Positions 9,522-12,500 of a stretch of 64,000 bases of DNA are shown one piece after another. The position numbers are program-made. The DNA is from Escherichia coli O157:H7. GTDB taxonomy: Bacteria > Pseudomonadota > Gammaproteobacteria > Enterobacterales > Enterobacteriaceae. Position 1 is the stretch's first letter; the number at the start of each line of letters is the position of its first letter. The stretch is from assembly GCF_013167455.1 (NCBI RefSeq), contig NZ_CP038328.1, one strand, 5' to 3'.

Positions 9522-12500
9522 TGAATCAACAACTCTCCTGGCGCACCATCGTCGGCTACAGCCTTGGTGACATCGCCAATAACTTCGCCTTCGCAATGGG
9601 GGCGCTCTTCCTGTTGAGTTACTACACCGACGTCGCTGGCGTCGGTGCCGCTGCGGCGGGCACCATGCTGTTACTGGTGCGGGTATTCGATGCCTTCGCC
9701 GACGTCTTTGCCGGACGAGTGGTGGACAGTGTGAATACCCGCTGGGGAAAATTCCGCCCGTTTTTACTCTTCGGTACTGCGCCGTTAATGATCTTCAGCG
9801 TGCTGGTATTCTGGGTGCCGACCGACTGGAGCCATGGTAGCAAAGTGGTGTATGCATATTTGACCTACATGGGCCTCGGGCTTTGCTACAGCCTGGTGAA
9901 TATTCCTTATGGTTCACTTGCTACCGCGATGACCCAACAACCACAATCCCGCGCCCGTCTGGGCGCGGCTCGTGGGATTGCCGCTTCATTGACCTTTGTC
10001 TGCCTGGCATTTCTGATAGGGCCGAGCATTAAGAACTCCAGCCCGGAAGAGATGGTGTCGGTATACCATTTCTGGACGATTGTGCTGGCGATTGCCGGAA
10101 TGGTGCTTTACTTCATCTGCTTCAAATCGACGCGTGAGAATGTGGTACGTATCGTGGCGCAGCCGTCATTGAAGATCAGTCTGCAAACCCTGAAACGGAA
10201 TCGCCCGCTGTTTATGTTGTGCATCGGTGCGCTGTGTGTGCTGATTTCGACCTTCGCGGTCAGCGCCTCGTCGTTGTTCTACGTGCGCTATGTGTTAAAT
10301 GATACCGGGCTGTTCACTGTGCTGGTACTGGTGCAAAACCTGGTTGGTACTGTGGCATCGGCACCGTTGGTGCCGGGGATGGTCGCGAGGATCGGTAAAA
10401 AGAATACCTTCCTGATTGGCGCTTTGCTGGGAACCTGCGGTTATCTGCTGTTCTTCTGGGTTTCCGTCTGGTCGCTGCCGGTGGCGTTGGTTGCGTTAGC
10501 CATTGCCTCAATTGGTCAGGGCGTTACCATGACCGTGATGTGGGCGCTGGAAGCTGATACCGTAGAATACGGTGAATACCTGACCGGCGTGCGAATTGAA
10601 GGGCTCACCTATTCACTATTCTCATTTACCCGTAAATGCGGTCAGGCAATCGGTGGTTCAATTCCTGCCTTTATTTTGGGATTAAGCGGATATATCGCCA
10701 ATCAGGTGCAAACGCCGGAAGTAATTATGGGCATCCGCACATCAATTGCCTTAGTACCTTGCGGATTTATGCTACTGGCATTCGTTATTATCTGGTTTTA
10801 TCCGCTCACGGATAAAAAATTCAAAGAAATCGTGGTTGAAATTGATAATCGTAAAAAAGTGCAGCAGCAATTAATCAGCGATATCACTAATTAATATTCA
10901 ATAAAAATAATCAGAACATCAAAGGTGCAACTATGAGAAAAATAGTGGCCATGGCCGTTATTTGCCTGACGGCTGCCTCTGGTCTTACCTCTGCTTACGC
11001 GGCGCAACTGGCTGACGATGAAGCGGGACTACGCATCAGACTGAAAAACGAATTGCGCAGGGCTGATAAGCCCAGTGCTGGCGCGGGAAGAGATATTTAC
11101 GCATGGGTACAGGGAGGATTGCTCGATTTCAATAGTGGTTATTATTCCAATATTATTGGCGTTGAAGGCGGAGCGTATTATGTTTATAAATTAGGTGCTC
11201 GTGCTGATATGAGTACCCGGTGGTATCTTGATGGTGATAAAAGTTTTGGCTTTGCCCTCGGGGCAGTAAAAATAAAACCCAGTGAAAATAGCCTGCTTAA
11301 ATTAGGTCGCTTCGGGACGGATTATAGTTATGGTAGCTTACCTTATCGTATTCCGTTAATGGCTGGCAGTTCGCAACGTACATTACCGACAGTTTCTGAA
11401 GGAGCATTAGGTTATTGGGCTTTAACGCCAAATATTGATCTGTGGGGAATGTGGCGTTCACGAGTATTTTTATGGACTGATTCAACAACCGGTATTCGTG
11501 ATGAAGGGGTGTATAACAGCCAGACGGGAAAATACGATAAACATCGCGCTCGTTCTTTTTTAGCCGCCAGTTGGCATGATGATACCAGTCGCTATTCTCT
11601 GGGGGCATCGGTACAGAAAGATGTTTCCAATCAGATACAAAGTATTCTCGAGAAAAGCATACCGCTCGACCCGAATTATACGTTGAAAGGGGAGTTGCTC
11701 GGCTTTTACGCGCAACTCGAAGGTTTAAGTCGTAATACCAGCCAGCCCAATGAAACGGCGTTGGTTAGTGGACAATTGACCTGGAATGCGCCGTGGGGAA
11801 GCGTATTTGGCAGTGGTGGTTATTTGCGCCATGCAATGAATGGTGCCGTGGTGGATACCGACATTGGCTATCCCTTTTCATTAAGTCTTGATCGTAACCG
11901 TGAAGGAATGCAGTCCTGGCAATTGGGCGTCAACTATCGTTTAACTCCCAATTTACACTGACATTTGCACCGATTGTGACTCGCGGCTATGAATCCAGTA
12001 AACGAGATGTGCGGATTGAAGGCGCGGGTATCTTAGGTGGTATGAACTATCGGGTCAGCGAAGGGCCGTTACAAGGGATGAATTTCTTTCTTGCTGCCGA
12101 TAAAGGGCGGGAAAAGCGCGATGGCAGTACGCTGGGCGATCGCCTGAATTACTGGGATGTGAAAATGAGTATTCAGTATGACTTTATGCTGAAGTAAAAA
12201 ATAACGCCGGAGAGAAAAATCTCCGGCGTTTTGGCTGTGAATTACTGCTGCGGAATAGCGGGTACGACCGGAACATTTAATGCCGGCATTGCAAACATAC
12301 CAACGAAATCTTCCAGTGGCATTTTCTGCCCGTTTAACGTTATCTGACCGTTAGTATATTGCAGGCTGGTGGTGATGGTATTGTCCTGCAAGGTGGTCAG
12401 ACGGAACATCTGCCCCATTGCTGATGCACCTTCAACTTGCTGTTTCGCCAGTTTTTTCGCTTGATCTTCCTGATAACCTTCCAGCTTCGCTACCTGAGTC

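Follow-up and report, generated by a model that had tools for sequence, protein, structure and literature searches.

A one-base deletion in the glucuronide porin gene uidC shared across the O55:H7/O157:H7 lineage of Escherichia coli

The uid locus and the reading frames of uidC

The window analysed here is a whole stretch of 64,000 nucleotides from Escherichia coli O157:H7 (contig NZ_CP038328.1 of assembly GCF_013167455.1), in which the glucuronide operon is laid out in the order uidR-uidA-uidB-uidC, with uidC last, as in the K-12, SE11 and O157 records (Table 1). The repressor gene uidR and the transporter gene uidB are both intact, the latter differing from its K-12 counterpart by 3 non-synonymous and 13 synonymous codons. 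In uidA, alignment with K-12 and PV15-279 called a GG insertion and a T>G substitution at 7803 (+92), and the gene is broken into two ORFs at 7711-8424 and 8412-9524. A first-pass annotation, made from the sequence alone, had noticed the disruption of uidA, which the GG insertion bears out, and had suggested that the whole operon is decaying; this holds for uidA and uidC, two of the three structural genes, but not for uidB or for the repressor gene.

Table 1. Features of the uid locus and of its 3' flank, in window coordinates
Feature	Coordinates	Strand	Basis
uidR, repressor gene, intact, 196 aa	6730..7320	+	RefSeq normal gene in CDC#03-98
uidA pseudogene (beta-glucuronidase)	7711..9524	+	GG insertion 8395-8396, T>G 7803 (+92); annotated 'frameshifted'
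uidB (glucuronide transporter), intact, 457 aa	9521..10894	+	ORF; RefSeq normal gene in CDC#03-98
uidC pseudogene, whole former coding region (glucuronide uptake porin UidC/GusC)	10933..12197	+	RefSeq 'uidC, frameshifted' at same coordinates in near-identical genome; NF008479 on both pieces
Truncated frame, 342 aa, = EDL933 Z2619 (AAG56603.1)	10933..11961	+	ORF; NF008479
Synonymous G>T, Thr338	11946	+	Alignment; common E. coli polymorphism
1-bp deletion site	11948..11949	+	K-12 and SE11 alignments; 40-mer in 308/5,426 complete genomes
Premature TGA	11959..11961	+	Shifted frame
Native C-terminus remnant (K-12 residues 349-421), 73-aa GTG ORF, = EDL933 Z2618 (AAG56602.1)	11976..12197	+	ORF; NF008479
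GC-rich hairpin terminator between convergent uidC and ydgA	12203..12230	.	Terminator/promoter scan, sequence

The porin ORF stops after 342 codons and the last 73 or so continue in a different frame from 11976, in agreement with what the first-pass annotation had seen. The UidC equivalog model NF008479 (421 positions, curated cut-off 510 bits, K-12 UidC itself scoring 860.1 bits) matches the 342-aa ORF over model positions 1-341 with 686.5 bits, which is above the cut-off, and the 73-aa ORF over positions 349-421 with 142.8 bits; one gene therefore supplies both ORFs, as its head and its tail. No single frame runs over all 421 positions, the two being separated by a 1-bp deletion and the TGA, and uidC is therefore a pseudogene of the UidC family and not a functional member of it.

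The lesion was located by aligning the window with uidC of K-12 (1266 nt, 421 aa), SE11 and O157:H7 PV15-279. The whole alignment contains a single gap, of 1 bp, and no compensating indel. Where K-12 reads ACGCCGCAA the window reads ACTCC-CAA, one G having gone between 11948 and 11949; this G is nucleotide 1017 of K-12 uidC and the third base of codon 339, which is CCG in K-12 and SE11 and CC- here (ACG CCG CAA TTT against ACT CC- CAA TTT). The earlier proposal of a 1-bp indel around 11950-11960 was thus right as to the kind of event and slightly off as to its place, the deletion lying about 2 bp upstream of that interval and still inside the 11940-11990 region flagged. A K-12 protein ending at about 342 aa would have made the downstream ORF unrelated; the alignment with K-12, which had been proposed as the check, instead gives a protein of 421 aa and the gap at codon 339.

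In the shifted frame Pro339 is followed by Asn-Leu-His and the TGA, three codons past the deletion, so that the 342-aa product consists of native UidC residues 1-339 and a foreign N-L-H. The native frame restarts at 11949, the 73-aa ORF being its listing from a GTG, and it stays open to the native stop with no more disabling mutations 3' of the deletion. When uidC is repaired in silico, 12 of its 421 codons differ from K-12, 11 of them synonymously and 1 non-synonymously; so few differences are expected of a young lineage and give no independent sign of relaxed selection. The G>T change adjoining the deletion, at 11946, was also considered as part of the lesion, and it was ruled out, being synonymous (Thr338, ACG>ACT) and widespread in E. 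coli.

Downstream of the gene, the spacer between uidC and ydgA (12198-12241) measures 44 bp, against 225 bp in K-12 and SE11. Roughly 181 bp of the K-12 spacer are additional sequence with REP-like palindromes, set between two near-identical terminator hairpins (AACGCCGGAG.GAAAA.TCTCCGGCGTTTTGG); in the window and in the O55/O157 genomes the hairpin is single and the insert is missing. Much further along, the stretch past ynfA (window positions from about 48460-50000 onward) opens in the annotation of the near-identical CDC#03-98 with a truncated, frameshifted integrase-like gene, which has an Arm DNA-binding domain, together with an excisionase and an exonuclease; from there on the window would therefore seem to enter a prophage with a degraded integrase.

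Spread of the deletion and its age relative to the uidA lesion

The lesion is known already from public annotation, and it is an ordinary pseudogene. RefSeq labels uidC as a 'frameshifted' pseudogene in all five annotations that were opened (PV15-279, DEC5B, 493/89, TW14359 and CDC#03-98). Over window positions 1-25000 CDC#03-98 is reported as 100.0% identical, the bit score pointing to a single mismatch, and the coordinates of its uidC pseudogene translate to window 10933-12197. The two ORF products are exactly those deposited for EDL933 in GenBank as AAG56603.1 ('hypothetical protein Z2619') and AAG56602.1 (Z2618). Among the literature on uidC in connection with O157 or with pseudogenes, no paper was found that treats the frameshift itself. 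Public records also hold C-terminal UidC fragments of 79-106 aa, which fall in the cluster of the 73-aa ORF; one example is a set of 91-aa entries named 'membrane-associated protein uidC', from dozens of contigs. These may come from other E. coli lineages in which uidC is disrupted elsewhere in the gene, or may reflect differing start-codon calls.

A 40-mer centred on the deletion, which demands the T at 11946 and the deletion jointly, was found exactly in 308 of 5,426 complete E. coli genomes, at 100% identity in every case. In a sample of 60 genomes spread over these 308, all those named with a serotype belong to the O55:H7/O157:H7 lineage. The carriers include typical O157:H7 (TW14359 and SS52), sorbitol-fermenting O157 493/89, LSU61, the glucuronidase-positive O157:H7 strain PV15-279 and O55:H7 (DEC5B and TB182A). 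Assemblies err most often by single-base indels, and a missing G might thus be a fault of sequencing or assembly in this record, with the gene intact in the organism. However, the same 40-mer recurs in assemblies produced by many laboratories; that of PV15-279 was built from PacBio data, onto which Illumina reads were mapped (PMC6256406), the EDL933 GenBank record has the split ORFs too, and the site is merely a run of CCC and no long homopolymer. The presence of the deletion in 308 independent assemblies therefore rules out a sequencing artefact, for which we see next to no chance.

The T at 11946 with an intact frame occurs exactly in 16 other genomes and, when one further mismatch is allowed, in approximately 1,029 more, while a query for the G at 11946 combined with the deletion returned none of the complete E. 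coli genomes. The reading frame is unbroken in K-12, in SE11 and in the 16 genomes with the precursor T allele, which makes the deletion the derived state, shared by a clade. Since intact genomes with the T allele exist and the G allele with the deletion is absent, it is most likely that the deletion was a single event, on the widespread T background, in an ancestor of the O55:H7/O157:H7 complex.

The uidA lesion has a narrower distribution. A 40-mer over its GG insertion was found in 292 of the 5,426 complete genomes, 16 fewer than the uidC deletion, and we infer from these counts and from the individual examples that the 292 are nested inside the 308. As uidA is intact in O55:H7 DEC5B, in 493/89 and in PV15-279, all three of which have the uidC deletion, the uidC lesion is the older one. 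The two structural genes were thus broken at different times, the deletion in uidC predating, and being independent of, the GG insertion of typical O157:H7. The glucuronidase-negative phenotype of typical O157:H7 has been ascribed to the uidA frameshift mutation (PMC6256406, PMC5708253). According to PMC5708253 there is no description of an O55:H7 strain that is glucuronidase-negative, and the enzyme phenotype therefore needs no UidC. GusC, the product of gusC, is said in a secondary description to enhance transport by GusB (PMC9881133). Glucuronidase-positive members of the lineage cope without UidC, which fits UidC as an accessory to GusB and not as an essential part of uptake. The primary paper on the function of gusBC is reportedly that of Liang et al. 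(2005, J Bacteriol).

As a clade marker the deletion is clean, of greater age than the classic marker in uidA, and common to O55:H7, sorbitol-fermenting O157, glucuronidase-positive O157:H7 and typical O157:H7, although its value is minor.

Predicted effect on the porin

The homologues of UidC in Enterobacterales, Vibrio, Pseudomonas and Shewanella, of which 54 full-length sequences of 413-438 aa were aligned, are all encoded in a single frame. Within the segment lost here (residues 340-421), G352, G364, E394, R396, G402, L405, D409, K411 and Y416 are invariant in this alignment and many more residues are nearly so. K-12 UidC was modelled with AlphaFold2 using the 54-sequence alignment, a single-sequence run (pLDDT 29) having been discarded, and the model is a beta-barrel with a pLDDT of 89 and a pTM of 0.84. 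Its last strands span residues 324-338, 341-353, 361-374, 384-395 and 404-420. The window product stops just past the first of these and is without the other four; it does not encode all the strands of a complete barrel, the C-terminal closing one being among those missing, and a count of the long DSSP strands in the model leaves it with 14 out of about 18. The signal peptide is retained. A sequence search of the PDB with UidC found no relative (the best hit, with an E-value of 0.9, was an unrelated endolysin) and a fold comparison was therefore used. Foldseek matched the model of K-12 UidC to OccAB3, OccK9, OpdK, OccK2 and OprD with TM-scores of 0.7-0.8, the OccK2 matches including a structure solved with glucuronate bound. 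Intact UidC is thus predicted to be an outer-membrane beta-barrel of the OprD/Occ type.

The C-terminal strand of such a protein closes the barrel and is required for BAM-dependent insertion. With four strands of the model and conserved residues lost, the truncation has most likely abolished the function of the porin. We propose that one G was lost from the third base of codon 339 in an O55:H7/O157:H7 ancestor and that the frame shift, by adding Asn-Leu-His before the stop, would have left a protein of 342 residues without native residues 340-421. Judging from what is known of barrel assembly, this barrel without its closing strands would not be inserted by BAM and would be degraded in the periplasm, and the role of the porin in aiding glucuronide uptake by GusB/UidB would be lost. 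The 73-aa downstream ORF is on this reading a mere out-of-frame remnant of the C-terminus, and the GG insertion in uidA followed later and independently.

The downstream frame, open to its native stop and free of further lesions, together with the transcription of the gene (PMC4048457), would be compatible with programmed -1 ribosomal frameshifting, or some other recoding, that restores a full-length functional UidC. However, positions 11940-11961, where the codons read ACT CCC AAT TTA CAC TGA, contain no heptamer of the form X XXY YYZ; the fold of 11935-12035, at -21.6 kcal/mol, does not stand out from shuffled sequences (z = 0.11); and there is no homopolymer on which transcriptional slippage could act. 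The two-frame state is moreover a derived one, limited to a single clone complex (308 of the 5,426 genomes), the homologues of other genera being single-frame. Recoding was rejected in view of the lack of both a slippery site and a structure, and we regard it as extremely improbable.

Strong up-regulation of Z2619 in cattle faeces has been reported, and its product has also been listed as an in-vivo-induced antigen (PMC4048457). This induction shows that transcription of the operon still works, so that the truncated polypeptide may be made, and says nothing of function. It could nevertheless be read, along with the signal peptide and the 14 strands of the N-terminal ORF, as pointing to two ORFs made separately and reassembled as a split porin, or to a 342-aa fragment that retains or acquires some function, for example as an antigen or a periplasmic protein. 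The place of the gene in the uid operon is a simple explanation of the mRNA induction, the missing segment carries invariant residues and the barrel-closing strand, and the 73-aa ORF, lacking a signal peptide, has no route to the periplasm. No promoter-like site was found for this ORF, and GACATTTGCACCGATT, which precedes its GTG, contains no Shine-Dalgarno-like motif when read by eye. On these three counts (promoter-like site, ribosome-binding motif and signal peptide) we rejected the idea that the 73-aa ORF is expressed on its own, and a split porin or a functional fragment seems to us very improbable.

Selection for the loss may also be envisaged, with the deletion as the first step of a stepwise shutdown of glucuronide use (first the porin, then the enzyme) that would, for example, limit how much of a toxic glucuronide or toxic aglycone, or of some other harmful agent, enters the cell in the gut of cattle or humans; or else the induced truncated Z2619 may have an in-vivo function of its own. 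Nothing specific supports either idea and we hold them to be improbable. UidC as a phage receptor, another conceivable reason for selective loss, was discarded, as a K-12 uidC knockout affected no phage of the BASEL collection (PMC8594841).

The reading we favour is that of a frameshift pseudogene fixed in the lineage, whose function has been lost, and on the combined evidence this is highly probable. Published studies in which Z2619 figures as a 'hypothetical membrane protein', or in which the O157 UidC enters interaction predictions, deal with the truncated product of a pseudogene.

Relation to known systems

The nearest functional reference is uidC/gusC of K-12 (NF008479; WP_001227023.1), which sits at the same locus, uidR-uidA-uidB-uidC, and is convergent with ydgA. 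Unlike the K-12 protein, the window product has 342 aa, residues 340-421 being gone through the deletion in codon 339. The annotated uidC pseudogene of O55:H7/O157:H7, represented by Z2619 and Z2618 of EDL933, is identical in the lesion and in the ORF products. Compared with these records the window has one extra synonymous SNP, a T at 10983 in the signal-peptide region (Gly17, GGC>GGT), where PV15-279 has a C by direct comparison. All the best matches listed are 99.9% identical over 1,341 nt and none reaches 100%, and the 25-kb comparison also seems to contain one mismatch; from these alignments the T would seem to be private to this isolate or to its record.

The uidA frameshift of typical O157:H7 is an event of the same kind in the same operon, a small indel fixed in a clone, and it is present in the window too. 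It differs from the uidC deletion in being younger and narrower (292 against 308 genomes) and in its absence from O55:H7, 493/89 and PV15-279. Finally, the OprD/Occ channels (PF03573), among them OccK2/OpdF with glucuronate (4fms), provide the structural parallel: the model of intact UidC superposes on them at the TM-scores given above, and UidC matches the Pfam OprD family just over the cut-off, although sequence identity is only 13-20% and the ORF in the window ends at strand 324-338 of the predicted barrel.
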